DNA of 63,851 nucleotides from a virus (lineage: Duplodnaviria; Caudoviricetes): the IMG/VR virus record IMGVR_UViG_3300024423_000001, positions 1-63,851 of that record; one strand, given 5' to 3'. Made by a program: the position numbers and the translations under genes. Shown in pieces: positions 281 through 56,602 of the stretch (position 1 is the first letter of the stretch; every line of letters begins with the position of its first letter). The notes below the pieces were generated by a model. That model did not search any database. It was given only the letters and a program-made list of their open reading frames with translations, and had not been told where the DNA came from.

Positions 281-627
281 CAAATTTGAGCGTAGACGCA
301 ATTTTTAGGGGAAAGGTTTATATATAGACCATGCAGCAAATATTATAATATTTAGGTGGTAGTTTGACCCCCAAAATTGGGTATGAAATTGCGACTACGG
401 GCAAATTTCAAAACTCATATATAAAGTTTACCCTTGTTAGAGCTAGGGCATGATCTGTATAGGAGATCGGTTAATAGCAAAATACTACTATTATCACTCA
501 GCTAACGGTGTCCTGTTGCATAGGTATTTGTCTGATACCATCAAATTCACGCAAAGACGCAATCTTTGGATAAGCTATGAATGAAGTATTAGGCAGTAAG
601 GAAAAATTGCAATCTCGGTCAAATTTG
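281..627. promoter_or_regulatory. AT-rich region with inverted AAATTGCG-N9-AAATT repeats; candidate origin or regulatory locus
   Basis: Inverted pairs at about 281/386 and 542/604; TTTATATATA at about 317. Confidence 0.45.
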
Positions 628-1065
628 AAGCCAATCCGCTGCACCTTGTGGGACGGCTCAGTCAGCAAAGAGGTCGAAGACTTCTCAGTCGTCTGGGGCG
701 TCGTGGAAGACGAGGAGACGGGCGAGCGAGTAGTCAAGTTCAATCTCAAGTTCGAAGACCGCGAGTTCGCTCTCTGGATCTCCGACCGTGTCTCTCTAAT
801 GACCATGCAGAAGATGCTTGAGGACGTGCTGGCAGGCTCGCAAGTTCAGCCAGAAGAGATAGTTGACGACGTAAATGCCGTTCTATCGGAGTTGAGGCAG
901 CGAGGTGTCCAGGGCTGGCAGTTCGAGTCCGCGGTCGGCAGTCTCTGTGAGAAATGGCAGCTAAGTCCAGAACAGACAAAGAAGATTATTGCACTATCGG
1001 TCGCGATTGCGAAGTTGGTGGAGGAGTGCCTCGCTACCAGGTCTGCTATCCCATATATTTTGTAA
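577..1065 (+). CDS. Hypothetical protein (start uncertain)
   Basis: 162-aa ORF on the late strand; no recognised motif. Confidence 0.6.
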   Translation: MNEVLGSKEKLQSRSNLKPIRCTLWDGSVSKEVEDFSVVWGVVEDEETGERVVKFNLKFEDREFALWISDRVSLMTMQKMLEDVLAGSQVQPEEIVDDVNAVLSELRQRGVQGWQFESAVGSLCEKWQLSPEQTKKIIALSVAIAKLVEECLATRSAIPYIL

Positions 1066-1314: not shown

Positions 1315-2301
1315 ATGACCATAGGGTTCTTGAGGATAAACAACTCTTGCAATCTAAACTGTAAGTATTGTTACCTTCGAGACAATAAGCCTGCTGAACT
1401 CGATCTATCGATTCTGGATGACATCATAGAATTCTGCCATCGTGAACGTATTCAGACAATCGAGATCCCGCAACAAGAACCGTTACTGAATGAGAAACTA
1501 TTTCGTGAGATTGTCGAGAGACTCTTCGCAAATCACATCCGAGTCCGGGGTGTTACTACGAATCTCACCAACCTCGGCCAGAAGACGCTCGACCTACTCT
1601 GGAAATACGAGATTCACGTGCTGGTCTCTTATGACTCCCTGTGGCATGACCAGTTTCGTCGTACCAAAGCAAATGAACCAACCCGCTCGATAGTCGAAAG
1701 GAACATGGAGAAGCTGAAATCATCCGAGGTTCGGTTCTCGATTGCAATAACAGTTCCGAGTGCTGGGTGTCCACTCTTGCATGAAGCAGTAAGTCAAGCA
1801 ATAGGGTATTCCGATTCAGTAGCTTTGAACTTCGATGTTGTTTCCGACTATGGCCTCCGGGAATCAGACTTGCCTGTGTTAGAGGAGCAACTTCGTGAGG
1901 TTTATCGGGATTGTCCTTATATCTTTCCATTCTGGAAGATCCGAAATAGATTGATGTCAGGTTGGCGACTCGAGAACATTGCATGTGGCGCAGGTCGTGG
2001 TTCACTAACGATCAACTACAATGGAACTCTCTATCCATGTTATCACGTGACTGGCTGGCAGCGTATTGGAATCGCTCTTGGAAATATATGGAATGGTATT
2101 GATCACGCTCAGCAGCAGAGGTTTAGACAATATGGAGCTCCTGAGCAATCGTGCAGACGGTGCCCAACAGCTATTTGTGGCGTCTGCTATGTGAACTCTT
2201 ATCTCACTGTGGGTAACATGCTCAAACCGATACCAATCGAGTGTAAGTTGAAGAGGCTGCTAACAAAGGTCGTGAGAGATGGCATACATAGCAGCGCTTG
2301 A
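1315..2301 (+). CDS. Radical SAM/SPASM-domain protein (peptide/protein maturase-like)
   Basis: CNLNCKYC (CxxxCxxC); C-terminal CGAG…G.LYPC…CRRC…CGVC…C SPASM pattern. Confidence 0.9.
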   Translation: MTIGFLRINNSCNLNCKYCYLRDNKPAELDLSILDDIIEFCHRERIQTIEIPQQEPLLNEKLFREIVERLFANHIRVRGVTTNLTNLGQKTLDLLWKYEIHVLVSYDSLWHDQFRRTKANEPTRSIVERNMEKLKSSEVRFSIAITVPSAGCPLLHEAVSQAIGYSDSVALNFDVVSDYGLRESDLPVLEEQLREVYRDCPYIFPFWKIRNRLMSGWRLENIACGAGRGSLTINYNGTLYPCYHVTGWQRIGIALGNIWNGIDHAQQQRFRQYGAPEQSCRRCPTAICGVCYVNSYLTVGNMLKPIPIECKLKRLLTKVVRDGIHSSA

Positions 2302-2758
2302 TTTCGAGAAGTGGGAGAACCATAAGGCATACTATACAATCTGGGTTAAGGATTGCATACCAGAAGAGCATTACTACAATTGCGTATATTATAACGACCG
2401 TCCGAAGAATTCATGTGGCAAGATTCCTTCAGGAAATGAATATACTCAAGAATGCTACGTCAGCGGAGGAAGCATCGACTATGGTGGCAGAACATACACA
2501 GCCAAGCTATGGTTGGACCGTTGTGAAGAAGGCACTTACGAGGACTCTGAGTCGCTATTTATTCCTACTGATCCTGATCTTTGTGAGATTCAGTGCCAAA
2601 CAAGTTGTGAAATTGCCTGCCAAGGTAGCTGTGAAGCTGTTTGCCAATCTTACTGCGAATTAAACTGTCAGACACAGTGCGAACTCAGCTGCCAGACTGC
2701 ATGTCAAGTAACCTCTCAGTTCTGCGGTCGAGATTGTGGACGTGGTTGTGGAAGATGA
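2279..2758 (+). CDS. CxxxC-repeat Cys-rich protein, probable rSAM modification target
   Basis: 11 Cys spaced every 4 residues (CEIQCQTSCEIACQGS…) plus CGRDCGRGCGR; overlaps the rSAM gene. Confidence 0.8.
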   Translation: MAYIAALDFEKWENHKAYYTIWVKDCIPEEHYYNCVYYNDRPKNSCGKIPSGNEYTQECYVSGGSIDYGGRTYTAKLWLDRCEEGTYEDSESLFIPTDPDLCEIQCQTSCEIACQGSCEAVCQSYCELNCQTQCELSCQTACQVTSQFCGRDCGRGCGR

Positions 2759-3258
2759 TCAAACTCACAACGTCTGGAGGATTGAGCATTCGGAGTCAGA
2801 TTCAGCAAGACGTTTCGCGAATCCTGGAAGACCTTGCACGAGATTTTCTCAGGAAAGTTCAATCCAATGTCCTCAAACAACGAGCAGTGGATAGAGGTAT
2901 TCTTCTCAGGTCATTCAGAATACAGAGACCCGATCCTCTCACAAGAAGGGTGGTGAGCACAGCCAGACACGCATCGGCAGTCGAGTGGGGCAGACCTCCA
3001 GGTCGCCTTCCACCCGTCGGTGTGATAAGAGAGTGGGTGATCAGGAAGGGCATCATGAGAGGTGCAGAGCAGTTAAGTCTACGGGCACGTCGAAGAAAGC
3101 TACGAACTACACCGCTCGGCTGGCAAGTAGCGTGGTCGGTTGCAAAGAAGATTCAAAGACGGGGTATAGAAGAACGACCATTCTGGCGACCTGCTATTGT
3201 AGAAATCGAACGCAAGGCTAAACAGATACGATGGCGAGAGATTCTGCTCAGAAGATAG
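2755..3258 (+). CDS. HK97 gp10-like neck/tail-completion protein
   Basis: VDRGILLRS…HASAVEWG…ERPFWRPA pattern; ATGA overlap with upstream gene. Confidence 0.7.
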   Translation: MIKLTTSGGLSIRSQIQQDVSRILEDLARDFLRKVQSNVLKQRAVDRGILLRSFRIQRPDPLTRRVVSTARHASAVEWGRPPGRLPPVGVIREWVIRKGIMRGAEQLSLRARRRKLRTTPLGWQVAWSVAKKIQRRGIEERPFWRPAIVEIERKAKQIRWREILLRR

Positions 3259-3716: not shown

Positions 3717-4018
3717 TCCATCATCTCCTCGGGAGTTAGAGGTTTGACTTTAATTCCATGTTTAGATTCGTAGTCAGCCCAGTACTTCCTCGATGCTTGG
3801 TTGTAGATATTCCTATCAATGTGAATCTCTGTGACAGTGCGATCGCCTGTTTCATCCTCCACATAGTCAACATAGACATAACCGTGATTCGGATCGTAAG
3901 TACAGTAGTGGCCTGTCTCCGTTAGCTGGTCTTGAGCTGGCGAATCTACGCAACCGAGTGATAGGACTATCAATATGAAGGTCAGGATAGCGATCAGCAC
4001 CTTGCTTAAGACCCTCAA
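3704..4018 (-). CDS. Putative lipoprotein
   Basis: Signal peptide ending in the lipobox-like LSLGC. Confidence 0.65.
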   Translation of the reverse strand: MRVLSKVLIAILTFILIVLSLGCVDSPAQDQLTETGHYCTYDPNHGYVYVDYVEDETGDRTVTEIHIDRNIYNQASRKYWADYESKHGIKVKPLTPEEMMECLN

Positions 4019-4239
4019 TTTGATGAATCACCTCCTTCTGGTTCGATTATAACTACAAAATCGAATTTGCCCTCCAAGCATTCCTTTAGACGCCGAACAG
4101 TGCAGATACGCTCAGATAATTCTGCTGCTGGTACGTAATCTTCGTCTCGCATCATTTCATTCAGGACAAACTCTTTCCATCTCAGCCAGTCACTGAGATA
4201 GACAGCATTCCTTCCTTCGAGAACCAGAATTTCACCCAT
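4015..4239 (-). CDS. Paralog family A member
   Basis: MGEILVLE…LEGKFDFVVII. Confidence 0.75.
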   Translation of the reverse strand: MGEILVLEGRNAVYLSDWLRWKEFVLNEMMRDEDYVPAAELSERICTVRRLKECLEGKFDFVVIIEPEGGDSSN

Positions 4240-4486
4240 CGACAACTATCACAATATTGAACTTACCATTGAACGCTCGATTGATATAGCGAATCTCCCA
4301 TAATGTCTCGATAGTTTCATCTTCTATCTCTGACAATCTCTGATCATACTCTTCTGAATCCTTGAGACACTCTTTATAAGCCTCCTCCAGTTCCTCGAGA
4401 TACTCTTCCAAACTCTCTTTCTCTAAGGAAAGAGCAGAAAGACTCCATCTGTTGGAGTCCGGTTCCAGAATGTATACTTCACTCAT
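4232..4486 (-). CDS. Paralog family A member
   Basis: MSEVYILE…AFNGKFNIVIVVDG. Confidence 0.8.
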   Translation of the reverse strand: MSEVYILEPDSNRWSLSALSLEKESLEEYLEELEEAYKECLKDSEEYDQRLSEIEDETIETLWEIRYINRAFNGKFNIVIVVDG

Positions 4487-4721
4487 CATTGATAATGACA
4501 ATATCGAATCGTCCCTTAAGCGCTTGATCAATATATCGAATTTCCCAAACCGCCTCTTGGAATAGCTCTCGGATCGTCTTTGCTTCCAGTGACCGTGGAT
4601 CGCACTTTGGCAGTAACCGCTTAAACCTCTCAAGACGCTTGATAAGAATCCTCCGTTCACTTAGGAGGCTTGTAAGATCCCAGCTATTGCAGTGCCGTTG
4701 TAGGATATACACCTCACCCAT
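4479..4721 (-). CDS. Paralog family A member
   Basis: MGEVYILQ…ALKGRFDIVIINDE. Confidence 0.8.
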   Translation of the reverse strand: MGEVYILQRHCNSWDLTSLLSERRILIKRLERFKRLLPKCDPRSLEAKTIRELFQEAVWEIRYIDQALKGRFDIVIINDE

Positions 4722-4953
4722 CGGCAATGATGACTATGTCAAACTTACCGTCGAGTGCCTGATCTATAAATCGAATGTCGCGGCGGACCTCGTAAAGATT
4801 CTTCATCAGCGTCTCTTGGTATTCAGGTTCAGAACCTATCTCCAACCGAGTCTCTAAGTCCTCAAGTTCGAGGAGGAGAGCCTGCTTCACAAGTGTGAGA
4901 GAGCTGGACTGCCACACATCGCCAATTCGCTCGATAATGATGACGTCACTCAT
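4714..4953 (-). CDS. Paralog family A member
   Basis: MSDVIIIE…ALDGKFDIVIIADG. Confidence 0.8.
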   Translation of the reverse strand: MSDVIIIERIGDVWQSSSLTLVKQALLLELEDLETRLEIGSEPEYQETLMKNLYEVRRDIRFIDQALDGKFDIVIIADG

Positions 4954-5176
4954 GCACCACGATGATATTGAACTTGCCTGCAAGCGCTGACTCAATGTCA
5001 CGTAAAGATCTGTATGTCTCGTAAAGATCATCGAGAACTCGATGTTCCATCGAAGGTGATAGATCTCCCTCCAATACGGCTTCCAGATGACTGAGTTTGC
5101 GAATTTGCCAGTCGCGTGTCTTTGTAAGTCTCTCTAACGCGCCTCCCAACTGATGCACGATAACAACTTCAGGCAT
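4946..5176 (-). CDS. Paralog family A member
   Basis: MPEVVIVH…ALAGKFNIIVVHE. Confidence 0.8.
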   Translation of the reverse strand: MPEVVIVHQLGGALERLTKTRDWQIRKLSHLEAVLEGDLSPSMEHRVLDDLYETYRSLRDIESALAGKFNIIVVHE

Positions 5177-5381
5177 CGATGCGCGATTCATCATCAGACT
5201 GCTTCTTTCTGTGGTATATCTCTTTGTTGATCTTTGCTATAATATCTTTCGTTTCTGCTATCCTGTCTAATAAACGATTTTCCCTCCTCTGTTGTATGCT
5301 TCTGTAATGGCTAAGGTACCAAATCGTCCTCTTCCGTTTCATCTTCCTACTCTTCTCAAGAATACGGTCTACATCCATCAC
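5169..5381 (-). CDS. Basic hypothetical protein inserted in the paralog array
   Basis: Coupled ORF lacking family A end motifs. Confidence 0.6.
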   Translation of the reverse strand: MMDVDRILEKSRKMKRKRTIWYLSHYRSIQQRRENRLLDRIAETKDIIAKINKEIYHRKKQSDDESRIDA

Positions 5382-5623
5382 ACGTCCACCACGACAAGAT
5401 TTAGAGAACCTGACAGCAGTTGCTCAAGATGGCGCAAGGCCAGCCGTAGAACGTAGATCCGATCGAGAAGCTCCTCTTCTCTCTCCGTAAATGGAGAATG
5501 TGCTCGGTTCGAGAAATACTCCTCGAGCGCTCGGAGCTCAAACTGATGCGTTCCTACTGCGCGTGATAGTACTCGTACCTGGATTGCTCTCCCATTCCGC
5601 TTGTAAACCACAACTTCAGGCAT
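5378..5623 (-). CDS. Paralog family A member
   Basis: MPEVVVYK…LLSGSLNLVVVDV. Confidence 0.75.
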   Translation of the reverse strand: MPEVVVYKRNGRAIQVRVLSRAVGTHQFELRALEEYFSNRAHSPFTEREEELLDRIYVLRLALRHLEQLLSGSLNLVVVDV

Positions 5624-5858
5624 CCGCAATTATCACGATATCAAACCGTCCGCTTAAAGCTCTCTTGACTTCCGAGAGTGGCCAGTAGTTCCAAGCTAAC
5701 TGATCAAGAAGGCATTTCTCTACGCCCGAATCCAACTCAGGCTTGTTCAAAGAATCTTCCAACAGGTTAAGTCTCCGAAGCAACTCATTACGTCTACGAG
5801 AGAGGACTGTGCGTTTCCGTTGTCGTTCTTCGCATTCGTATATCACAACTTCCGCCAT
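5616..5858 (-). CDS. Paralog family A member
   Basis: MAEVVIYE…ALSGRFDIVIIADA. Confidence 0.8.
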   Translation of the reverse strand: MAEVVIYECEERQRKRTVLSRRRNELLRRLNLLEDSLNKPELDSGVEKCLLDQLAWNYWPLSEVKRALSGRFDIVIIADA

Positions 5859-6258
5859 AATTAAGTATTCGATTCGCCAGTTCGTCTGCTCTACGAAGAT
5901 AGACTTCGTCTCGTGGTATCTTTCTCAGTATAGGCCAGTGGCTGAACATCGAGAGTAAGATCTGGATTGTAGAGTTGAGTTTCTCGAGTTCTGAGTTTCG
6001 AATCTGCCAACGGCCGAGTAGCTGGTTAACCACGAGAGCGCTATCAGAACAGACAACTATTTGATCATCACTACTCGCCTTTACGATTTCTAGCGCTCGC
6101 TGGACTGCTTTGTATTCCGCAACGTTATTAGTGGTTTGACCAAGATACTCCGAGTGCTCCAATACAACTCGACCTTCTTTGAGCACTACTATTCCAACTG
6201 CTGCCTCTCCAGGATTACCTCGACTCGCTCCATCCACATAGATCTTGATTTCAGCCAT
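5794..6258 (-). CDS. rnhA: Ribonuclease HI
   Basis: YVDGASRGNPG, TNNVAEY, SDSALVVNQ, ADELAN motifs. Confidence 0.92.
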   Translation of the reverse strand: MAEIKIYVDGASRGNPGEAAVGIVVLKEGRVVLEHSEYLGQTTNNVAEYKAVQRALEIVKASSDDQIVVCSDSALVVNQLLGRWQIRNSELEKLNSTIQILLSMFSHWPILRKIPRDEVYLRRADELANRILNYGGSCDIRMRRTTTETHSPLS

Positions 6259-6487
6259 AGGCTACATCCTCCCGCTTGCCCCGTTGAATTGCCTCCTTCA
6301 ACGACTTGAACTCACGTATCACACCGTCAGCCTCAAAGTATCTGATAATATTTCCGAACTGTTCTGCCTGGCCCTTGACACGTTCCGCACCTGCAAGAAC
6401 GAAGTCCACATAGTCTTCGACATCCTTGATCGTTCTGACTTCCTTCAGAACTTCCTCCAATCTTTTCTCATCCTGCTCTTCGGTCAT
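6251..6487 (-). CDS. Hypothetical protein
   Basis: ATG overlaps the nrdD stop (MTEEQDEK…). Confidence 0.6.
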   Translation of the reverse strand: MTEEQDEKRLEEVLKEVRTIKDVEDYVDFVLAGAERVKGQAEQFGNIIRYFEADGVIREFKSLKEAIQRGKREDVAYG

Positions 6488-8253
6488 GCACCTATTCGAT
6501 ACGGAGTCCGATCTCTCCACTCCGATTGCTTTCCTTCGTTCCATGCCCTCACGTTCGATAGATAACCTACGACTCGTGAGAAGACATCCGCTGGACCACC
6601 ACATTCAGGGCATCGCCAATGCTCACCTGAGAAAGTCTGATGGCACTTTGAGCACACACTAAACGTTGGTGTGATTGTGAAGTATGGTAGGCAGGTTCGA
6701 TTCACCAGTCTTTCAGCTAAGAATGGAATTACTCTCGCATCGGGACGCTCGGGTAAGAATACATGGAACACAGTTCCACCAGTATACAACCGCTGAAGTT
6801 GCTCTTGATGCCTCACTGCTTTACCTAAGTTCTGGGTGTATCCGACCGGGAGCATCGTCGAGTTAGTGTAGTAGGGCGCCTTCCGATTGCCTGAAACGTA
6901 ACAGCCTGGTAGGGACTTGACGTCGATCTTTGCAAGTCTATGCGAACACCCCTCGGCAGGTGTTGCTTCAAGGTTCCACAGGTCGCCAGTCTCTTCCTGA
7001 TATTCAACCAGTCTCTCTCTCATCACGATCAGGACTCTCTTCATCAGGTTCAGACCTTCAGGATCGGCAATCGAGCAACCTAAGAAATTCTGACATGCCT
7101 CTTCGCCACCTACGAGCCCGATGGTCGAGAAGTGATGATCGAATCCTGGCAGAAAGTTTCGCGAATATGGCATGAGGCCTTCATTGAAGCTCCTGTTACA
7201 AATCGCTCGTTTGATGACCAATGACTGCTTTGCCAGATCCATGTAATGTACGACGTTCTCGAAGAACTCTGATTCGTCTTTGGAGAGGTAAGCGAGTCTG
7301 GCAAGGTTCAGAGTAACGACTCCGATACTGCCCGTAGTATCGCCGAAGCCGAACAAGCCACCTGTCTTTCTTTTAAGTTGGGTTAGATCCAAACTCAAGT
7401 GACAGCACATTGAACGGACATCGTGACGTTTCAGGCCGGTGTTCTCTGAACAGTTTTGGAAGTATGGGATCCCGAACTTTGCGGTTACCTGTGCTAATTT
7501 TCTACCTACTTCAGTATCCCAACTGAAAGCGTCATCCATGAGATAAGTTGGTATTGGAAACCTGAACACTCCGCCGTTCGCATCTCCTTCTTCCAGTACG
7601 TCCAAGAATGCCAGATTAAACATCTCGATCTCTTGCTCAAAATCACCGTATACCTTATCCTGTAACTGACCACCCACGATAACGGCTTGGTCCTTGAGGT
7701 CATCAGGAGGAACGAGGTCGAGTGTAAAGTTCAAGAACGGGCTTTCCAAGCCCCACCTGGTCGGTTCATTCACCCCATACACGAACTCCTGGATCGTTTG
7801 TTTGACTTGGTTGAAAGTCAGCCCATCGTAATAAATGAAGGGAGCCAACAGCACGTCGACTGAATTCCAGGCCATAGCACCCGCCCACTCCTGTTGCAAG
7901 ACTCCAACAGCATTCATCAGTTGACCTAATGCAGATGAGAAGTGTCTTGGTGGACGACTCCGAACTACACCGGGCGGACCGCTGAAACCGCGAGACAGTA
8001 GATCTTGTAAACTCCAACCACTGCAATAGCCGACTATACCCGCTCCTAGGTCATGAATATGAAAGAACCCCTCCGTATGCGCCTTCGCTATCTCCGGAGG
8101 ATAGACATGTTTCAATACATATCGAGCTATCTCAGACTCCGCAAGATATGCCTTCAAACCTCCAACTGACCTTATACGGTTGGCATTCTCGTTTGCACCA
8201 TCAACACGACTTCGCCAAGTTCGACCCTTGATATATGTCTCCACTCTACTCAT
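6484..8253 (-). CDS. nrdD: Anaerobic (class III) ribonucleoside-triphosphate reductase
   Basis: HIHDL, RSMCC, TPAEG, YYTNS, YTGGT, CxxC…CxxC and the glycyl-radical motif RVVGYL. Confidence 0.93.
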   Translation of the reverse strand: MSRVETYIKGRTWRSRVDGANENANRIRSVGGLKAYLAESEIARYVLKHVYPPEIAKAHTEGFFHIHDLGAGIVGYCSGWSLQDLLSRGFSGPPGVVRSRPPRHFSSALGQLMNAVGVLQQEWAGAMAWNSVDVLLAPFIYYDGLTFNQVKQTIQEFVYGVNEPTRWGLESPFLNFTLDLVPPDDLKDQAVIVGGQLQDKVYGDFEQEIEMFNLAFLDVLEEGDANGGVFRFPIPTYLMDDAFSWDTEVGRKLAQVTAKFGIPYFQNCSENTGLKRHDVRSMCCHLSLDLTQLKRKTGGLFGFGDTTGSIGVVTLNLARLAYLSKDESEFFENVVHYMDLAKQSLVIKRAICNRSFNEGLMPYSRNFLPGFDHHFSTIGLVGGEEACQNFLGCSIADPEGLNLMKRVLIVMRERLVEYQEETGDLWNLEATPAEGCSHRLAKIDVKSLPGCYVSGNRKAPYYTNSTMLPVGYTQNLGKAVRHQEQLQRLYTGGTVFHVFLPERPDARVIPFLAERLVNRTCLPYFTITPTFSVCSKCHQTFSGEHWRCPECGGPADVFSRVVGYLSNVRAWNEGKQSEWRDRTPYRIGA

Positions 8254-10147: not shown

Positions 10148-10534
10148 CTTTCCAACCCTAATTGGTTATCATCCCAACCGAGTATCCACCTTCGAGCTAT
10201 CTCGCAATGTTGCTCCTTATCAGCCGCCGGTAAGATGATCCCAATCTTTGTCATCCACTGAATCATTCCTCGACATGTCCACACCATAAGCAAACTAACA
10301 CTGGTATAAACCTCACACCATCTCTATTGGCTTCGACATGGATGTGGAACTCCTTTCCGATTGAAAAAGGAAGAGGACAGACTCGCACGATTTCCATCAT
10401 TTCTCACCAGATGCACATATTTGGCTCAGAACGAAATTTTGTTGAGGAGACATAGTTTGATATAGGTCTAACTGAGAAATTCGCTTGAGCCTCACCTATG
10501 TGCGTCTCACGGGAAATCTGCACTCAATCATTGG

Positions 10535-12228: not shown

Positions 12229-12696
12229 CTACTCATACCATGTCCATCCTTCTCCATCCACATATCTCTTTCCTATACGATTAGACTCACACAATAGCTC
12301 TCTTCTCACTTCCTCCTCCGCTGTTTCATATAGCGCCTCTCTCGACACCGGACACGTATGAATCTCCATCACGAAGGCATCATCCATAGGCTCATAACGA
12401 AGCTTGACCTCGCAGCCGCTGCACTCCTTCGCAAACTTTATCCATTCACATATCTCTTCGCTGTCGGTAATGCACTTCCATTCATTATCGTATTCGTTTC
12501 GCAACACAAAGACCGCTACAATCGGAATAGTTTCTACATGCTTTACAATCTTACTCAGCTCTGAAATGTTAATCTGTCGTCTGTTTCTCTTCAACCTCTG
12601 ATTACAAGCCGCCGCTCTATTCACTGCCATATCGTTAGCTTCTCCTGCACCATTCGCACATATTTCGCTCAGAACGAAATGTTCCATCTTAGACAT
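12229..12696 (-). CDS. Hypothetical protein
   Basis: 155-aa ORF; start uncertain because it overlaps a repeat element. Confidence 0.5.
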   Translation of the reverse strand: MSKMEHFVLSEICANGAGEANDMAVNRAAACNQRLKRNRRQINISELSKIVKHVETIPIVAVFVLRNEYDNEWKCITDSEEICEWIKFAKECSGCEVKLRYEPMDDAFVMEIHTCPVSREALYETAEEEVRRELLCESNRIGKRYVDGEGWTWYE

Positions 12697-47811: not shown

Positions 47812-50800
47812 CCTTTGACAGTTTGGCAGAAGAGTATTCAGAAAATATTGACGAGAGTGTTGGGCTGTGCGATTGGCTTGAGCGCGGGCCATTTGTTTAT
47901 TCGGCATTTGTAGTTGGCTCTGCAGTTCGTGTCGTTCGGCGAAGACGGATTGCTCCGACTGAGTCTGTGGAATGGGAGCTGAGCCTGTCAGGCAGTGTGG
48001 AAGATGTGAAGATCTCGCTGGATGCTGCGGATAATTTATTTGTCATCGTGCTTGATTACCATGATGGAAGGTATAGAGTAGGAGTCTGGGAGCATAGCGC
48101 AGCAGGATTCCGATTCCACGGGTACGCACTACAGTCTGCGTATCCTTTGCGATTACAAGCTTGTTTCTTCGACGTTCGTGGAAATTTCAGAATTGAATAC
48201 TTGGCATTTGACAGCTACTGTTGGCGGCTCGGGGTCGCTACGAAGGAGGCTGGTGCGGACTGGGTTTTGGCCTCATTCAGAACAAAGAACTTACTTTGCT
48301 ACGGGTCGTTGCGACCCGATAGAATTGGTGGGCAAATCAATACGCCGATCGCAGGCAATTTGTTCATGATTCTTGAGGACAGGCATGGTCGGGAGCCAGT
48401 TGCTGTTGGTAACCTTCAAGAGTCTTCGTACACAACAGTCGGAGATGGTGCAAGTGGTCTGCTCAGTAAGGTTCCTGGTTGGGAGGACTGGTTCTTCCTG
48501 AGTCATAACGAGTATACGCAGCGGGTAAAAAAGGATCTTACGGATTATAGCGCTCTTCATTGGACTGGTGGCGAGTATGTCCACGGGATAACGTGGCGAA
48601 AGGGTAAGATCTGGACAGTTGACTATAATTCTGCAGGTTATAATGCTGATGCTGTGGTTGCTATTGAAATAGATCCTGACGACTGGAGCTATACGAAACA
48701 CGATGTGTTTGGCGGGAGTTACGGGGAGCATGTCGATCCGCTCTGGATAACTTCGGTCGGTGAGGATCTTTATATCTCAGGTTATGGAAAGGGTTGGCTT
48801 TGTAAATGGAATCCCGACACAGGTGATAAGGTTAAGATCAAGTATCCTGAGGTTAAGGCGTGGTATGAAGAGTTCTGGCCAAATGCTGGCTGGAAGTTCG
48901 AGAATTTTTTGACTCCCATTCAGACTTATGAGCGGGCAGGTGTTCTTCGTTGTCTGACTCATACTTGGGCGTACCACGCATCCTTATCTTGGAATTTGCT
49001 AATAGACTTTGAGCATGATGATCCAACAAACTATCGAGTGCTTCGGTTGGATGGAGTTGAACCTGCCGGACACGATACAGAGTTCTTCTTTGTGTCCTAC
49101 CCCTATGTCTATCTTACAACCGGGAGAGTGCTGTTTCGAGTAGATCTTGTCCGCTGGTGTGTTGACAGGTCGGTTTATATAGGTGACCTCTACGGGTCTG
49201 GCGACTATCACTTTCCTGAGATTCGAACTGATGGTCATTATCTCTATCTTACCTGCCCTGGTAGCCATAAGATAGCGGTATTTACGTTCGATCTAAGGCG
49301 AGTAGCGATCGTTTCCGCAATAGATAATCCATATCACATGCTGATCGAGGAACCTTATATCTATTTTGAGGTTCCTCAGTCTCCATCGAAGTTCTGGAAG
49401 GGACGAGTGGGGTGGACGAACAAACCAACGCCCAAGATTGGACTCCTGAAGGATACTCGCTTGCCCTTGGGATCGACATTAGAGGAAAGTTCATCTGTAT
49501 CGGACTTCTCGCTCTCGCCTGCTCTCACAAAGAACCTTTACATTGCCGACTATAAAGAGTTTGGGCCGGTGGTTTCGCAGGATCAGCATTACATTTATGC
49601 CGTTCGGGATTCCCAATCTGAACCTTACATATATCAGTTCGACAAGGTAACCGGCTCAGCGAAACTCATAAGCTTACCGACCTCGGAGGTTATAGGCCCA
49701 CCTCGTGACATTATCTCAGATGGTAAGTATGTATATGCGGTTGCTGATCATGCGACCTCGCCAACGAATCGAGTGGTCGTTCATAGGTTTGGGGTCGAGG
49801 ATTTCTCGATAGCTTCGAAGGAGACTCTTGTCAGGCAATGGAGTGATGCAAGTGAAATCCATCTCACGTCGCTTGCGAAGGCTGGTGGTTTCCTTTACGT
49901 TGTAGGCTATGATGGTTCACCTTCTGGACGGCATCCTATTTTGCTCTTTGCTATTCGATGTGATTATAAGTCGGGCAATGAGGGAGTGCCTCAGGTAGAG
50001 TCTGTTCCTGAAGGCTACAAATTTCATCTCAAATATGGACAGCAATTTATTTCTCTGCCTGTGTATCCGTCTGTAACTTCGCCTGAAGGCCTGTTCGGTG
50101 CCGACGTCGAGGTTTGGCAGTATGATCCGGATATTGGTTGGTCTCGTCCGTCGCGGCTTGAACCAGGGCGAGGCTATCTTGTACGGTGCCCAAGCGATCG
50201 GACAATAACTGTTACGGGCTCGCCGTATACGGTTGATTGGACGAGTCTCGAGGGTTCGCTGAAGACTGGCTGGAATCTTGTCGGCATTGGAGAAGCCGCT
50301 GTGGAGATTGGTAATTATTATCACGACATTCAGGCATGGGACTTCGAAAGGAGTCAATACTTCCATAAGCGGAAGGGTGAGAAGCTGAAGGTCGGGCATG
50401 GTTACTGGATACGGAAGGATGGTAATTTTCGACGGATCCAACTCGATCAGACGATGTGGAACTTCAGACCATTTATCGTTGCACACGGCGATTGTCTCTA
50501 TATCGCAGGCACGGAGTGGTTATATCATTATCTAATCAAGATCCCGGTCAGCGAATTTGGAAAGGAAGTTCCAACGGTTTCTGCTGTAAGGTTCAGCACT
50601 GAGAAATATTCCAGCATACGCTCTAAGCCAATCGTCACCGACGATTATATCTTCCTTCACACGCTGACTGCTCTTGTCAGGCTTAATGCCGAAACTCTGT
50701 CGAAGGAGGCGGAAGTGGGGTTTGGCTATCCTGAATTGCTTGATTCGCTCACTTATGATCCAGTCTCAGACAGAGTGATTGCGAAGTATAGGGATGCTAA

Positions 50801-52559
50801 CGTTTTGTACATTACGAATCGTAATCTGGCAGGTGCTAAGTTAGGACTCGTGGGTATCAAGGCAGGATCAAGCGGGCCGATTTACTACGATGCTGACTGG
50901 TCGAGGGTCTTGTACTTCTTGCATCGGAACCCTTCGGTGGACTACGGGCATCTATACCAGTTCCAGATATTGCCTATAAGAGAGCTCGAGTTTCATCCTG
51001 ATCGAGTGGTCACTCGATTCTCAGATGGTTTGCCAGTGCCTTGGCGAGTTCTTTTAGATTCGTGTTCAGTTGGCTTGTCTCGGTCGCTGGAGGTAGGCAA
51101 AGTTATAGTCTTCTCTGTTATATGTGCTGTAAATAAGACTTGCTCTGTCTTTAAGTCCTTAGCTGCTGCCTTTGTCTCGAATATACAGTTATTGGCTTAC
51201 GATTGGCTTGGGCTTGTTGACTCAGTCTCGGTCTCTGTTGGTGTGTTGAGGCTTGCAATAGTGAAATCATTGTCTCTGGTGTGTCAGGTGTTAGAATCTG
51301 CTACGTTTCGAGTCAGACACGGGCTGAGTGAGCTCGTAAGCCTGACTGCGACATTCCTTGCCTACGATTGGCGAGGGCTTGTAGAATCGGTCTCTGTATC
51401 GCTTGATTTAACGGGGAAATATATTCGAGCATTAAGATCTGCATTCCTTTCAGTGGTGATCACTGTGAGAAGGAGATTCCTTAAGGGTCTGTTGTGGACA
51501 ACTCAAGAATGCAAGCCTACGTATCCAAAGATAGAAGAGATTACTGGGGGATTCAGGTACACTTTCAGGCAGGGTTCAAATTGGTTTACACCTTTGACGG
51601 AAGGCTGTTCACCCGAGGATTTCGGAGCGGATGTTGAGGTGTGGGCATGGGATCCGGCTACGGGCTGGTACCATCCAGATTCATTCGATTGCTCACGTCG
51701 GGGTTACTTGATGCGATGTCCTACCGTGCGCACTGTTGAAGTTACTGGCACTAAGTGCGCGGCGTTCTCTTGGGAGGATCTTAAGAATTCGCTTACTAAA
51801 GGAACTTGGAATCTAGTTGGTGTCTATTCAGACATAACGGTCGGGGATGCGGATAATCTTATCTTAGGTTATGACGAGGCAGAGGGGAAGTGGTGCCCTA
51901 TCGTCCAAGGCAGTATTCTCGAGCGGGGCCGTGCTTACTGGATATTAGAAGGCACACCCGGCGAGAAGCCTTTTGAAATCTCTATTAGGTTTAATGCTTG
52001 GGATTGGCTTGGTCTTAAGGAGAATGTTCCGCCGATCATAAAGCTGAGCAAGAACTTCCGGACTGGCTTTGCCGAGTCAATTGCGGTTGGAATTATAAGA
52101 AGAGTATATATTGCGACTACGATGGTTGCTGAGACTCTGAAGCTGACGTTAGGTCGGGCGTTCAGTGCGGTGTGTTCGCTCGCTGATGCCTGCCAGTTTG
52201 GTATCTTACGCTGGATTTCGACCTTGAAGTCATGCTGCTCGTCGTTGTATACCGAAACTATCTTGCGGAAGTTACCGGAACTTGCACGTTCGGATTCTGT
52301 TTGGGTGAGCATAACTAGGACTTCTGCTTACCTGCGTAAAGTTGTTCATGCTGAGGTTGTCAGGCTCAGCGATGTTCTAAGTTATGTGCCTATCAAGCGA
52401 CCTGTTGAAGCTTTGAGTGTCTCGGTTAATAGAGTCTTTGAGATTGTTTTCCGATTATTCTCAGAGCTGCCCTGTCGGTTGCGATGGAGACTGAGGATAT
52501 ACAACTTGTTGGCTGGCATACGAGTCTCCTCTCGCTTCAGGAAGTTGAACAGGAAGTAA
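47808..52559 (+). CDS. Giant (1583 aa) multidomain virion/adhesin protein
   Basis: Propeller-like regions, two FGADVEVW…GY…WNLVG domains, AYDW.GL repeats. Confidence 0.7.
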   Translation: MTFDSLAEEYSENIDESVGLCDWLERGPFVYSAFVVGSAVRVVRRRRIAPTESVEWELSLSGSVEDVKISLDAADNLFVIVLDYHDGRYRVGVWEHSAAGFRFHGYALQSAYPLRLQACFFDVRGNFRIEYLAFDSYCWRLGVATKEAGADWVLASFRTKNLLCYGSLRPDRIGGQINTPIAGNLFMILEDRHGREPVAVGNLQESSYTTVGDGASGLLSKVPGWEDWFFLSHNEYTQRVKKDLTDYSALHWTGGEYVHGITWRKGKIWTVDYNSAGYNADAVVAIEIDPDDWSYTKHDVFGGSYGEHVDPLWITSVGEDLYISGYGKGWLCKWNPDTGDKVKIKYPEVKAWYEEFWPNAGWKFENFLTPIQTYERAGVLRCLTHTWAYHASLSWNLLIDFEHDDPTNYRVLRLDGVEPAGHDTEFFFVSYPYVYLTTGRVLFRVDLVRWCVDRSVYIGDLYGSGDYHFPEIRTDGHYLYLTCPGSHKIAVFTFDLRRVAIVSAIDNPYHMLIEEPYIYFEVPQSPSKFWKGRVGWTNKPTPKIGLLKDTRLPLGSTLEESSSVSDFSLSPALTKNLYIADYKEFGPVVSQDQHYIYAVRDSQSEPYIYQFDKVTGSAKLISLPTSEVIGPPRDIISDGKYVYAVADHATSPTNRVVVHRFGVEDFSIASKETLVRQWSDASEIHLTSLAKAGGFLYVVGYDGSPSGRHPILLFAIRCDYKSGNEGVPQVESVPEGYKFHLKYGQQFISLPVYPSVTSPEGLFGADVEVWQYDPDIGWSRPSRLEPGRGYLVRCPSDRTITVTGSPYTVDWTSLEGSLKTGWNLVGIGEAAVEIGNYYHDIQAWDFERSQYFHKRKGEKLKVGHGYWIRKDGNFRRIQLDQTMWNFRPFIVAHGDCLYIAGTEWLYHYLIKIPVSEFGKEVPTVSAVRFSTEKYSSIRSKPIVTDDYIFLHTLTALVRLNAETLSKEAEVGFGYPELLDSLTYDPVSDRVIAKYRDANVLYITNRNLAGAKLGLVGIKAGSSGPIYYDADWSRVLYFLHRNPSVDYGHLYQFQILPIRELEFHPDRVVTRFSDGLPVPWRVLLDSCSVGLSRSLEVGKVIVFSVICAVNKTCSVFKSLAAAFVSNIQLLAYDWLGLVDSVSVSVGVLRLAIVKSLSLVCQVLESATFRVRHGLSELVSLTATFLAYDWRGLVESVSVSLDLTGKYIRALRSAFLSVVITVRRRFLKGLLWTTQECKPTYPKIEEITGGFRYTFRQGSNWFTPLTEGCSPEDFGADVEVWAWDPATGWYHPDSFDCSRRGYLMRCPTVRTVEVTGTKCAAFSWEDLKNSLTKGTWNLVGVYSDITVGDADNLILGYDEAEGKWCPIVQGSILERGRAYWILEGTPGEKPFEISIRFNAWDWLGLKENVPPIIKLSKNFRTGFAESIAVGIIRRVYIATTMVAETLKLTLGRAFSAVCSLADACQFGILRWISTLKSCCSSLYTETILRKLPELARSDSVWVSITRTSAYLRKVVHAEVVRLSDVLSYVPIKRPVEALSVSVNRVFEIVFRLFSELPCRLRWRLRIYNLLAGIRVSSRFRKLNRK

Positions 52560-53221: not shown

Positions 53222-56200
53222 ATGGGTTGGTTATCGGGATACCAATATAGGAAGAAAGTAACGATATCGGGTTCAAGTGGAGCTGGACAGTACTATCAGG
53301 TCAAACTGTCCATTGGTAGCTCGTCAGGTGGTGACTTCCATTTAGAGGGGCATTGTACGGACTTTCCCAATGACATACGGTTCACTGATGATGATGGCGA
53401 GACACTGTTGGACTACTGGATAGAAGATCCTACACAAGACCCGATTACGGTATGGGTCGAAGTCAAGGATAATCTGGATAATGACGTGGACATCTATTGT
53501 TACTATGGGAAAAGCGGTGCCAGTTCTGCGAGTGATAGCGAGGCGACTTTTGAGTTTTATGATGATTTTGAATTTGGAAGTTTGGTCTCATGGGATTATG
53601 GAGATTATGGATTTGGTGGTAATACGAATCCTGTTTTTGTGCATGATATAGATGGGGATGGACAGAAAGAGATAATTCTTGCGCGCCTGGAACATGAAAA
53701 CAAGCTTGTGGTTCTAAATCATGATGGAAGTCACAGGTTTACATTTACGGGCGATGATACCGATATAAGCTTTGATTACCATGCAATTGCATTTGCGGAT
53801 GTAAATGGTGATGGCAAAGATGAAATAATCTTTGGCTCTGATAAGGTATATGCGATTGATTATAATGGCAACGAGCTGTGGTCGTATGACCCGGAAACAT
53901 ACTATTATTATTCTGATTATTCTGGCAAGAACGTACGTGTGATAGCGTTAGATGCGGCAGATATTGACAATGATGGCGATATAGAGACAGTAGCGTTGAT
54001 ACACGATTCGTCTTCCGACCATTCTTCTCAAAACCAAGTAGTGGACTGCATAAAGAAAGATGGGTCGGGGAGAAAATGGAGATGGGGACCGACGACTGCC
54101 AATGCAGTCGCCCATTACCTTCTACTTGCACGATTAGATCAGTCGTCCAATTATTACCATATAATTTTCACAGATGCAAGCCAGCTATGGTGTCTCAAGC
54201 ATGATGGTACAGAACAGTGGCATAATACTGATGCTCATGACTCTGATATGCATATGGCTGTCAATGTAAATGAGTCATCGGATAATCTGGAAGTTCTTGC
54301 ATGCGGAAAGGATAAATTTTGTGCTATCAACCTTGATGGTTCAATGTACTGGTCATACAACACAGGACACACTCAAGAGTTCGATGTTGCAGATGTAAAT
54401 AACGATGGACATTATGAAATTGGTGTGTTTAATAACTATGATGACCATCTATTCATATTTTCTCATGATGGAAATAAGCTATATGATGGCTATGTCAGTG
54501 GAATAGGCTGGAATGGTCTTATAAATGCGGTCAAGGTGGATGGCAACTGGTATTTTGCGATTGGGGATAGATTGTATAACCATAATGGTTGCGTGGGCAA
54601 ATGTTTAAAGTTTATAGGTACAACGAAACACTTCAATTACAAACATCATATTTTTGGTTACTCTCCCGATTTTGATAATGATAATGCTGAGGAACTCATC
54701 GGGAATAGTTGTATTGGAGAAATTGAAATTGCCCCGTGGACTGCTCAGACTGGGTGCTTTGACCTTGTGGGAGAATCAGGGAACGGCATAGCGAAGGGAG
54801 TAACGAACGGAGCTAATCTTGTGACTCACAATATGGCAGATATAGGTGTTGGAAAGGCTATTAGGGCTAAAATTAGAGCTGATGATGATTATAGTGGTAC
54901 TGGAATTATCTTCGGTTACCAAGACTCTTCTAATTTCTATCATGTAAGAGTTGATAACGGGGAGGATGAACTCCAAATATACGAATGGGTTTCAGGCTCG
55001 GCAAGTAAAAAGGGAAGTGCATCAGTAACGATTAGCACAGGAACATGGTATGTCTTGGAAGCTATATGGAGCGGAGCGAATTCAATAGAAGCAAAGCTTT
55101 ATGATGTGGATGGAAATGAATTGGCATCAGCCTCTGCAACAATGACTGGAGGCTTCTCAAGCGGTAAAATAGGATTCAGAACTTATAATAGAGGCAGTTA
55201 TGATGATTTTCGTGTTCGCAAATACGCCGACCCGGAGCCAACATTCAGTAGTGCGAATGCAGAAGAGACAGGACCTATGCAGAAATCATCTTTGGATGCA
55301 GGTGCAGCGATTGATTCTACCAAGTTAGCAAGTTCAAACACACGTCCGGATGCAGGATTGGTTACTGAAATGCAAAGTGTTGGCTTATCTCAATTTGATG
55401 CGGGAGATGGGGTAGAGGTGCTATCGCTGGCTTCCATGTTTGAGATTATGGATTCGGGGCTTATAGTCGAAGGTGAATCTCTAATTGGAGAAATAGTTAG
55501 CATAGATGCGGGTTACTTTACAGACCTTGAGCTACTTGGGGTAATACTCTCAGTCCTCGAGTCAGGCGGTTTTGAAGAGTCAAGTCTTCTTGAGACGCTG
55601 CTATTGAAGTTCGCATCTGACTCATGTATTTCATTTGATTCAATGTCACTTGTCTCTTATTGCCTTGGTTCGGACTCAGTAATATCTGAAGAGGCTCGGA
55701 GTTTTCAATCCAGCTTTGAATCTCTTGACTCGGGATTTGTCATAGAATCCAGATTTATAGTCGGTCAAGTATTGAGTTTAGAGGTTAGCCTCGCAAGTGA
55801 GACTCGTTCGTTGGCAGGTATCCTTAGCGCTGTTGAACATGCGGATGGGATCGATTTAGCCGCGGTCTTCTCGGTGTTATTAGGGCTGGATCTCGGCGAG
55901 CCATTCGAATCGAGCTACCTACCGAGCCTAACTTACAAATCGTCCTCCGATTCGGGTATTCTTATTGATTCAGAGTTGGTTCACTCATTGATTAAAGTGG
56001 CTGAGAAAGCTCACTCAGCGACTGCGCGGCAGCTCGCAGCATCATCATCCTCGATGGATTTCGGATCGGTTTCGGACATGAAGCGGCTGACGTCTGGTCT
56101 AACCGGTTCGGATCTGAGTTCATTAGTGGATGTTTCTCGCTTAACGGTAATACTTAGTAGACCGGAGATAGCGGTTTACATTGAGGATAGACCATTGATT

Positions 56201-56485
56201 TCGGCAGCTGTGCTGGGCCGAGATAGGACAGTCAGTGAATCTCGGTCCGATATATTCAATTTACTTAAGAAATTGGAGACTGGGTCTCTGGTGGATTCCG
56301 GCTGGACACAGGCGGGCATAGTTGAGAAGCTGGTGACTGATGCTGGTTTGCTATCAGAATCGAGCGAGCGCGTGGAGACTGCGAAGAAGGTTGTTCTATT
56401 GGCTAAGGCTATTAAACTATGGTATTTTGCACGACGGGCAAGGCTTAATAATCAGATATTGGAGTTTGATGAAGGAGACCTTTGA
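53222..56485 (+). CDS. DUF2341-like adhesin with FG-GAP/VCBS-like repeats
   Basis: W…YRKK.TI…DIRFTD.DG…LDYWIE…YYG; D.DGDG..EI repeats; RVRKY..PEP. Confidence 0.8.
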   Translation: MGWLSGYQYRKKVTISGSSGAGQYYQVKLSIGSSSGGDFHLEGHCTDFPNDIRFTDDDGETLLDYWIEDPTQDPITVWVEVKDNLDNDVDIYCYYGKSGASSASDSEATFEFYDDFEFGSLVSWDYGDYGFGGNTNPVFVHDIDGDGQKEIILARLEHENKLVVLNHDGSHRFTFTGDDTDISFDYHAIAFADVNGDGKDEIIFGSDKVYAIDYNGNELWSYDPETYYYYSDYSGKNVRVIALDAADIDNDGDIETVALIHDSSSDHSSQNQVVDCIKKDGSGRKWRWGPTTANAVAHYLLLARLDQSSNYYHIIFTDASQLWCLKHDGTEQWHNTDAHDSDMHMAVNVNESSDNLEVLACGKDKFCAINLDGSMYWSYNTGHTQEFDVADVNNDGHYEIGVFNNYDDHLFIFSHDGNKLYDGYVSGIGWNGLINAVKVDGNWYFAIGDRLYNHNGCVGKCLKFIGTTKHFNYKHHIFGYSPDFDNDNAEELIGNSCIGEIEIAPWTAQTGCFDLVGESGNGIAKGVTNGANLVTHNMADIGVGKAIRAKIRADDDYSGTGIIFGYQDSSNFYHVRVDNGEDELQIYEWVSGSASKKGSASVTISTGTWYVLEAIWSGANSIEAKLYDVDGNELASASATMTGGFSSGKIGFRTYNRGSYDDFRVRKYADPEPTFSSANAEETGPMQKSSLDAGAAIDSTKLASSNTRPDAGLVTEMQSVGLSQFDAGDGVEVLSLASMFEIMDSGLIVEGESLIGEIVSIDAGYFTDLELLGVILSVLESGGFEESSLLETLLLKFASDSCISFDSMSLVSYCLGSDSVISEEARSFQSSFESLDSGFVIESRFIVGQVLSLEVSLASETRSLAGILSAVEHADGIDLAAVFSVLLGLDLGEPFESSYLPSLTYKSSSDSGILIDSELVHSLIKVAEKAHSATARQLAASSSSMDFGSVSDMKRLTSGLTGSDLSSLVDVSRLTVILSRPEIAVYIEDRPLISAAVLGRDRTVSESRSDIFNLLKKLETGSLVDSGWTQAGIVEKLVTDAGLLSESSERVETAKKVVLLAKAIKLWYFARRARLNNQILEFDEGDL

Positions 56486-56602
56486 GATTTGCCATGAGAC
56501 GCTCATATTTAGCCACAGTTGCAATTTTATTGAGTGGGCTATATCTTAATATCTCCGGAGTTAGATTTTGTCTTATACATACCAAATTTAGCCATAGACA
56601 AA

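Follow-up and report, generated by a model that had tools for sequence, protein, structure and literature searches.

Why would a tailed virus keep among its late genes a radical S-adenosylmethionine (SAM) enzyme whose gene runs into that of a protein rich in evenly spaced cysteines? The question is raised by positions 1315 to 2758 of IMG/VR record IMGVR_UViG_3300024423_000001, a stretch of 63,851 nucleotides that we analyzed as a whole and refer to as the window. On its + strand, the gene for a radical SAM/SPASM enzyme of 328 amino acids (1315..2301) overlaps by 23 nt the start of a gene for a 159-amino-acid protein (2279..2758), as the initial annotation of this DNA had described. That annotation took the two genes for a virus-encoded system similar to those that make peptides that are synthesized ribosomally and modified post-translationally (RiPPs). 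The pair is small (1.44 kb), self-contained, and found together in other viral contigs. We propose that the enzyme staples the cysteine array of its neighbor with thioether bonds in place, on an intact and probably virion-associated protein, and put the probability of this reading at roughly 55%.

The class of the enzyme is clear from family models. It passes the Pfam cut-off for Radical_SAM (PF04055, 42.6 bits against 29.5, E 9.6e-11; 45 bits in the genome search) and the cut-offs of two SPASM models (PF13186, 31.7 bits against 21.5, E 1.8e-7; TIGR04085, 34.9 against 27). The CX3CX2C motif of the SAM-cleaving [4Fe-4S] cluster (C12, C16, and C19; 1348..1371, +) is kept in all eight full-length members of our alignment A2. 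Seven cysteines of the SPASM region (C224, C242, C280, C283, C288, C291, and C310; 1984..2244, +) are invariant in the same alignment and, by their number, would be enough for two auxiliary clusters.

The relation to individual families is distant. PapB (NF047865) is the best NCBIfam match, with 95.3 bits over enzyme residues 6-293, followed by QhpD (TIGR03906) with 68.1 bits and the SCIFF maturase with 48.6 bits; the cut-offs are 340 and 453 bits for the first two, and the third score is also far under its own. The initial annotation had pointed to the hidden Markov models of the CXXX-repeat families, and these do not claim the pair: with the maturase model TIGR04115 the enzyme reaches 34.7 of the 350 bits required, and the 159-amino-acid protein has no match at E <= 1 to the target model TIGR04117. 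TIGR04463, the CrpC type with a cut-off of 525 bits, is absent from the best 25 of the enzyme's 64 matches, of which the lowest has 31.5 bits. Among solved structures, CteB (5wgg, E 3.5e-20) comes closest and aligns to enzyme residues 4-314 from its own residue 100 on. Since the alignment begins only there, the enzyme lacks the N-terminal recognition domain, and since only 11 residues precede its cluster motif, it has no space for a RiPP recognition element (RRE). It is the sole radical SAM gene product of this genome. A grouping with the NrdG activases, considered at the outset as the outcome that would speak against the proposal, is not seen: the NrdG models TIGR02491 and TIGR02495 find nothing genome-wide at E <= 10, and the same models matched controls in 13 and 14 of 14 genomes.

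The second protein has 19 cysteines and consists of three parts. Its N-terminal domain (residues 1-100; 2279..2578, +) contains five invariant cysteines and had been described as folded-looking, which structure prediction bears out. AlphaFold2 (AF2) models this region as all-beta, with a predicted local distance difference test score (pLDDT) of 90-96 over most of it. Foldseek matches the model to Ig-like domains of glycoside hydrolase family 2 (GH2; E 3e-6), VIA reaches Z 9.6 with 88 residues aligned (104 in the second row, which is tied), many rows being tied and S-layer domains among them, and the Atlas structure search gives a template modeling score of 0.70. From these models we are confident that the domain is a generic Ig-like beta-sandwich and not a leader peptide. 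It is followed by an array of ten C-[E/Q]-x-x units and a closing eleventh cysteine (C102 to C142; 2582..2704, +), the proposed crosslinking sites. These 11 cysteines stand at residues 102, 106, 110, and so on up to 142, at the exact 4-residue spacing reported before. The C-terminal tail, ...FCGRDCGRGCGR (2705..2755, +), carries C149, C153, and C157.

Three full-length homologues, 56-69% identical, show which of these features are kept. Because all 11 array cysteines are invariant in them, the array is not a product of chance; C149, C153, and the five N-terminal cysteines are invariant as well. Tandem Repeats Finder detected no tandem repeat in 2500-2800, so the array is not a DNA microsatellite. 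Two further details in the initial annotation hold for the window copy but only in part beyond it. The 8-residue C-E-x-x-C-Q period is present here, but the order of E and Q after the cysteines is nearly random both in relatives and in the 144 array proteins described below. Likewise, a (CGRx)3-like tail, reading CGRD-CGRG-CGR, does follow the array, but only C149 and C153 are conserved in relatives, and an FCGR[DE]C tail is limited to P0001-P0004, P0015, and P0057 among the array proteins examined. The protein matches no Pfam or NCBIfam family and has no relative in GenBank phages. A predicted complex of the enzyme with the 159-amino-acid protein scored 0.01 against a mark of 0.32, a result that counts neither for nor against binding.

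Enzyme and array genes recur as neighbors

If the enzyme acts on the array, the two genes should stay together in related viruses, and the initial annotation had made its proposal depend on this linkage. We approached it from both sides. Among 5.8 billion proteins, nine enzyme relatives are found at 37-71% identity, two of them (P0008 and P0009) at 50-52%, after which identity drops to 26%. In GenBank phages identity to the enzyme reaches only 21-28%, in faecal phage records without annotation. Viral contigs scanned with single sequences gave no match, nor did genome contigs scanned with the enzyme profile. The enzyme-side sample comprised nine distinct contigs with the enzyme clade at 37-72% identity. 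An array protein adjoins the enzyme in six of the nine (the window, L002, L021, L022, L023, and L025), and contig ends make the other three uninformative. L018 and L020 stop inside the enzyme gene, with no array on the upstream side of L020; L019 starts within an ORF that lies upstream, and what remains of this ORF, its tail, is almost identical to the tail of the L022 array protein. The pair is thus adjacent in every informative relative.

The arrangement around the pair varies. L002, whose enzyme is 72% identical, has the same order as the window: a 157-amino-acid gene, the enzyme, a 159-amino-acid array gene, and a gp10-like gene. In relatives of 37-40% identity the order is swapped and the array gene lies immediately upstream of the enzyme. 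The L021 array protein has a homologous N-terminal domain (hhalign 96.7%), about 22 units, and a TIGR04117 match of only E 0.24; that of L022 has a different N-terminal domain and 20 units. L025, a contig binned to an Archaeoglobales metagenome-assembled genome (MAG), encodes an enzyme of 38% identity with the array gene adjacent. What is conserved across these relatives is the enzyme and the array protein only, and the 162-amino-acid and gp10-like neighbors seen in the window belong to the near clade.

We also noted smaller features of these loci. Ends resembling the CFI-box-CTERM domain occur in many array proteins (L021 2473-3375, L022 255-1391, L025 7737-9218, L019 3111-3986, P0016, and P0054). 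In the two proteins scanned with NF041770, that of L021 among them, these ends scored under the cut-off (E 1.2e-6 for L021 and 1.2e-3), and the others, including the L022 tail, were judged by eye. The window array protein carries its short Gly-Arg-Cys tail and no such end. A protein of 85-88 amino acids with two transmembrane segments is encoded beside the enzyme in L002 (6667-6924), L019 (1374-1640), and L021 (4702-4962), and is missing at the equivalent site of the window. A second small transmembrane protein follows the enzyme in L021 (4375-4659) and L025 (10129-10383).

From the array side, we searched 1.84 billion representatives with a profile of the 159-amino-acid family and obtained 164 proteins, most of them 300-2000 amino acids long with several arrays. 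We examined 152 proteins, namely, the best 150 of the 164, the window's own protein, and P0003. Arrays are present in 144 of the 152; they have 4-110 units, the median being 27, and the unit consensus is C-[Q 49%, E 40%]-[T/S/V/L]-[S/G/A/T].

A DNA pattern of five C-[E/Q]-x-x units matched at least 118 viral loci. We dropped 31 of the 118 listed because no ORF of 50 or more amino acids carries an array in frame there; among the loci listed, this left 87 in-frame arrays, 71 of them simple 12-nt tandem repeats and 16 complex by a filter of our own (unit diversity of at least 0.7 in an ORF of at least 100 amino acids). A SPASM enzyme lies on the same strand within about 2.2 kb of 12 of the 16 complex arrays listed. 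The simple repeats have a nearby enzyme in 1 of 71 cases, a weak match in L109. In nine of the linked loci the gap is 0-325 nt (L044, L059, L083, L099, L110, L118, L127, L131, and L142); the genes overlap in the record of L038 and are about 1.5 kb apart in that of L128 and 2.1 kb apart in L094. The pair is a mobile two-gene module, present in at least 18 viral or virus-like contigs. Thirteen other viral radical SAM loci have no array.

A scan of cellular genomes returned 120 loci, 96 of them in frame and nearly all 12-nt microsatellites. In L191, an Oscillospiraceae MAG, the enzyme abuts an array in a protein of 780 amino acids. Applied to these cellular loci, the filter picked out L185 and L206, both of low-complexity look, and passed over L203 (diversity 0.62), an array protein discussed below.

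The adjacent enzymes resemble that of the window. PapB is the best NCBIfam match in 9 of the 10 array-adjacent enzymes tested, at 65-203 bits, all under the cut-off. The tenth, from L127, is a true TIGR04115 member (485.6 bits against 350) and lies beside an array ORF of 131 amino acids. A quick tree of 35 rows, from which the truncated rows L094, L131, and L128 and fragments were excluded, recovers the window clade (10 rows) with a Shimodaira-Hasegawa-like approximate likelihood ratio test (SH-aLRT) support of 99, and a second array-linked group (10 rows, including L127) with 88. Of 15 non-array enzymes, 14 fall outside both groups; the exception, L024, is a short contig starting inside the enzyme gene. 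The tree does not join the two groups as one clade, and a single origin is neither shown nor excluded by it.

Other repeat and enzyme loci came up in these scans. Microsatellites of 12 nt that read CQxx or CExx are very common (L027-L269) and would contaminate naive searches for Cys-repeat proteins. Arrays of the form C-E-[Y/F/S]-N occur in the large phage contigs L075, L109, L129, and L138 with no adjacent SPASM enzyme, and one of these records is 94% complete. Large viral contigs L004-L016 carry three to five consecutive radical SAM/SPASM-like genes with no Cys array nearby, which represents a different viral system.

What the enzyme may do to the array

How would the pair work? The enzyme would be translated just ahead of the 159-amino-acid protein, on whose array it presumably acts. 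It would cleave SAM to the 5'-deoxyadenosyl radical and take a side-chain hydrogen from residues of the C-[E/Q]-x-x array, and neighboring cysteine sulfurs would then be bonded to those carbons, giving a series of small ranthionine-type thioether rings. The protein would remain uncut, with its Ig-like domain still joined to the array. The stapled array would be a stiff spacer or tail, resistant to reduction and to proteases, on a late and probably virion-associated protein.

Two precedents lead to this reading. PapB joins cysteine to the carbon beside the carboxylate of Asp or Glu and accepts partners at i+1 to i+7, according to PMC12373016. In PMC13692751, the SPASM enzyme CrpC is shown experimentally to install ranthionine crosslinks on CrpA, an intact 29-kDa Cys-repeat protein. 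Because PapB accepts this range of positions and CrpA sets the example of an intact protein, in-place stapling offers itself for the window pair, where Glu is available at i+1 and i+5 of the array cysteines and would serve as acceptor.

The proteins that carry arrays suggest where the product might be found. The array of L038, six units long, belongs to a head-decoration protein that resembles Hoc (phrog_10993, 1.6e-89) and has relatives in Faecalibacterium phages. The two array proteins of L110 are tail-like by weak PHROG matches, and those of L118 and L083 contain an amidase-like segment. In P0076, the N-terminal domain of the 159-amino-acid protein is joined to a Pro/Thr linker and a transmembrane anchor in place of the array (hhalign 98.2%). 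Because arrays are grafted onto Hoc-like and tail-like proteins, and the same N-terminal domain has a linker instead in P0076, arrays appear from these sequences to be a spacer for exposed proteins, exchangeable and variable in length, and not a peptide core. The viral genome also encodes an anaerobic ribonucleotide reductase, NrdD (6484..8253, -; PF13597, 530 bits), which indicates an anaerobic host. Disulfides would be unreliable in such an anoxic host, and thioethers would serve in a reducing habitat where disulfides cannot.

Several observations weigh against stapling on a virion protein. The chemistry of the window enzyme could differ because its scores are far under every family cut-off. 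AF2 models the array with low confidence (pLDDT 40-55). Gln makes up about half of the proposed acceptors; E119 is the only invariant one, position 103 is always acidic, and relatives keep three to five acidic acceptors per 11 cysteines. Among the loci listed, 4 of the 16 complex arrays have no nearby enzyme: L075, a 94%-complete record with no enzyme; L078 and L104, whose arrays lie at a contig edge; and L088, with a weak SPASM match 8 kb off. The planctomycete protein of L203 (1239 amino acids, 50 units) has no enzyme within its 8-kb locus. The L025 pair lies among glycosyltransferase-like genes, as judged by eye, so the module is not always virion-linked, and a gp10-like neighbor is kept beside the pair only in L002, the closest relative. 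As for the RiPP-like system first proposed, the linkage, the non-NrdG enzyme, and the folded N-terminal domain speak for it and the CXXX-repeat family membership does not. We regard it as partly supported, since the thioether chemistry is drawn from distant relatives far under their cut-offs.

The best placed of the alternatives is that the enzyme does act on the array but by other radical chemistry, such as C-C crosslinks, epimerization, methylation, or oxidation of the cysteines. Similar-sized SPASM enzymes carry out many reactions (cyclophane formers, anSME, and the epimerase YydG are among the weaker matches of this enzyme), and with every family score far under its cut-off such a reaction is conceivable. 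We nonetheless consider it unlikely, since Cys-thioether formation is what the three best-scoring families and the closest solved structure have in common, and cysteine itself is the invariant feature of the substrate.

Could the 159-amino-acid protein instead be a classical RiPP precursor? Its first 100 or so residues would then be a long leader and the array a core that is cut off and freed at lysis as an antimicrobial or signaling ranthipeptide or sactipeptide. Long folded leaders are known, for example, those resembling nitrile hydratase, and RiPPs are the usual products of PapB-like enzymes. The array is C-terminal here and ends within the last 10% of the protein in 90 of the 144 array proteins (from the best 150 of the 164 plus two). 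Against this, we found no double-Gly or other cleavage motif, and the enzyme has no RRE. The complete genome has no match at E <= 1 to the C39 peptidase (PF03412) or ABC transporter (PF00005) models, which agrees with the initial annotation and leaves the locus without the genes of an exported cluster, although host-encoded factors are possible. The N-terminal domain is a reusable Ig-like module found elsewhere on linkers and anchors, and other enzyme-linked arrays are mid-protein or N-terminal, in proteins of 568-797 amino acids. A cleaved peptide product therefore seems doubtful.

We judge it similarly doubtful that the array is a metal-binding, iron-sulfur, or disulfide module with only an indirect link to the enzyme, for example, one that ligates metals on the particle, or one by which the protein supplies or protects clusters. 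The 19 cysteines in 159 residues invite this idea, and the authors of the CrpA work (PMC13692751) suspect metal binding because their cluster is upregulated on pyrite. The likely source run of the window carries a hydrothermal vent as its habitat label. An indirect link leaves the repeated tight adjacency to PapB-like maturases unexplained, however, and metal binding and stapling can coexist. We also know of no cluster-binding motif that fits cysteines at i and i+4 with an adjacent polar E or Q.

Finally, it is most improbable that the enzyme has nothing to do with the 159-amino-acid protein and activates the viral NrdD in place of NrdG, for although NrdD is encoded with no recognizable NrdG and this is the genome's only radical SAM gene, the enzyme matches neither NrdG model, its SPASM domain is complete with seven cysteines, its gene sits in the late operon on the other strand and 4 kb away from nrdD, and the enzyme belongs to a clade that accompanies array genes on contigs where no NrdD is seen.

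In-place stapling thus stays our preferred reading for the window, and it invites a broader idea that we hold more tentatively. Tailed viruses of strict anaerobes (gut viruses of the Oscillospiraceae/Faecalibacterium type, and probably archaeal, hydrothermal ones) might carry a radical SAM enzyme of their own that rivets the C-[E/Q]-x-x arrays of their surface proteins, those of head decoration and tail included, into ladders of thioether rings. If true, these viruses would possess an enzyme-made structural element of a new kind: a rod or stalk, 4 to 110 units long and redox-proof, as the anaerobic counterpart of disulfide-stabilized virion proteins. It would also be the first radical SAM modification of virus particles. 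With the product on the particle, it would explain how exposed proteins are stabilized without disulfides in reducing habitats.

The late-gene setting of the pair

The genome is that of a complete, circular-assembling tailed virus of 63.7 kb; its record is classed as 100% complete, with direct terminal repeats. Bases 63729-63851 are identical to bases 1-123, which confirms the circular junction. The genome encodes a large terminase (TerL), a portal, a prohead protease, and a major capsid protein, and GC skew tracks the direction of transcription. TerL is only about 28% identical to those of Thermus/Meiothermus phages and haloarchaeal viruses. The opposite strand encodes PolB, a Cas4-like nuclease, an ERCC4 nuclease, and NrdD. 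The latter presumably depends on the host for its activation; a small ORF downstream of nrdD (6251-6604) has no cluster motif. No tRNA and no Rfam match was found in the genome.

The initial annotation placed the pair between tail genes and a gp10-like gene across the junction, and this placement holds. The + strand late block spans the junction, with the tape-measure, tail protein, and head-tail adaptor genes upstream of the pair. The block ends in the order 162-amino-acid gene, 250-nt spacer, enzyme gene, array gene, and Neck1 gene. This last gene (2755..3258, +) encodes an HK97-gp10-like tail-completion/Neck1 protein that passes PF04883 (23.7 bits against 21.4) and matches phrog_5 Neck1 (E 5.3e-9). 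Its start codon overlaps the stop of the array gene as ATGA. Together with the Ig-like fold and the enzyme-linked arrays in Hoc-like and tail-like proteins of other viruses, this late-operon position hints indirectly at a virion protein.

The 162-amino-acid gene (577..1065, +) lies outside the conserved module and has homologues only in L002 and L018. A weak match to PqqD (PF05402, E 0.056, 14.2 bits against a cut-off of 23.4) made it a candidate PqqD/RRE protein. We dropped this lead: Foldseek has no match at E <= 0.001, the AF2 pLDDT is 60.6, and only the near clade has the gene.

Directly 5' of the enzyme ATG, the intergenic spacer holds two repeat elements (1197-1240 and 1276-1316, +; families D2/D3/D4) that look promoter- or leader-like. 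A copy of repeat family D2 (56486-56529) ends 5 nt before the start of the head-tail adaptor gene (56534), and copies of family D3 (42721-42761 and 42799-42839) precede the gene at 42848. To judge from these positions, the upstream elements may act as promoters. Since copies of the spacer repeats directly precede further late genes, among them that of the head-tail adaptor, the enzyme, array, and Neck1 genes look like a separate late transcription unit. Elements of 36-44 nt recur more widely between genes (1197-1316, 10398-10517, 12648-12683, 42721-42839, and 56486-56529), several just 5' of gene starts, and the element pairs at 1197/1276 and 10398/10477 have an identical spacing of 79 nt. As candidates for promoters or leaders they would be of a non-sigma-70 type.

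Other features of the window lie further from the pair. The ORF at 63422-63851 continues in frame across the junction into 3-230, and phmmer finds a weak homologue of it in L002 (1.2e-8). PHROG has no match to two late ORFs of very large size, 47808-52559 (1583 amino acids) and 53222-56485 (1087 amino acids). Seven tandem small paralogous genes (76-142 amino acids) occupy 4015-5858 on the - strand and have counterparts in L002 (9421-10367); their common C-terminal motif is L.G(K/R)F(D/N)(I/L)V(I/V).

Comparison with known systems

Literature searches returned no description of CXXX-repeat systems, of the CFI-box, or of phage SPASM enzymes acting on virion proteins. Among characterized and predicted cellular systems, the closest family is PapB, which with its substrate PapA makes the ranthipeptide freyrasin. 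Window residues 6-293 align to positions 7-318 of the 330 in the PapB profile, and both enzymes are a compact radical SAM core with a SPASM domain and no N-terminal RRE. PapA resembles the array in its repeated cysteines with acidic residues nearby. Its unit is C-x-x-x-D, however, whereas that of the window is C-[E/Q]-x-x, with Gln as half of the candidate acceptors, and PapA is a short secreted peptide whereas the putative substrate here is a folded protein of 159 amino acids in a virus late operon.

The CXXX-repeat system (TIGR04115/TIGR04117) shares with the window a cysteine at every fourth residue beside a SPASM maturase. The window enzyme is under the TIGR04115 cut-off and in a clade separate from L127, the true member. 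To our knowledge, the chemistry of that system is uncharacterized. CteB (5wgg/5why), the SCIFF maturase, offers the nearest solved structure, but the window enzyme lacks its N-terminal domain, and the SCIFF target is a six-Cys peptide, unlike the 159-amino-acid protein.

QhpD, of the second-best family for the window enzyme, acts in the maturation of quinohemoprotein amine dehydrogenase (QHNDH), where it makes Cys-to-Asp/Glu thioethers. Its substrate QhpC, a subunit of an enzyme, has three crosslinks but, unlike the 159-amino-acid protein, no periodic array. QHNDH is cited as a protein with RiPP-like modifications in PMC13692751.

CrpC and CrpA of Methanococcus voltae (TIGR04463) come close in layout: a SPASM enzyme is paired with an intact Cys-repeat protein, whose N-terminal domain is followed by C-terminal repeats. 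The CrpA repeats contain C-X-X-Q/D, and a domain-domain recognition is proposed for the pair (PMC13692751). CrpC has an RRE and is a TIGR04463 member, and the window enzyme is neither so equipped nor so classed; the CrpA repeat is 17 residues long and that of the window 4. CrpC/CrpA is cellular, and a term search of the main text of PMC13692751 turned up no viruses or phages apart from the TEV protease.

Enzymatic thioether stapling is well studied for small secreted peptides, and for whole proteins there are a few cellular cases (QhpC; CrpA, 2026). The present finding would carry the logic of whole-protein stapling over to viruses, and a compact maturase without an RRE, paired with a simple four-residue target unit, could be of use in protein stapling. 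The window pair is best read as a viral form of protein crosslinking as carried out by QhpD/QhpC and CrpC/CrpA.

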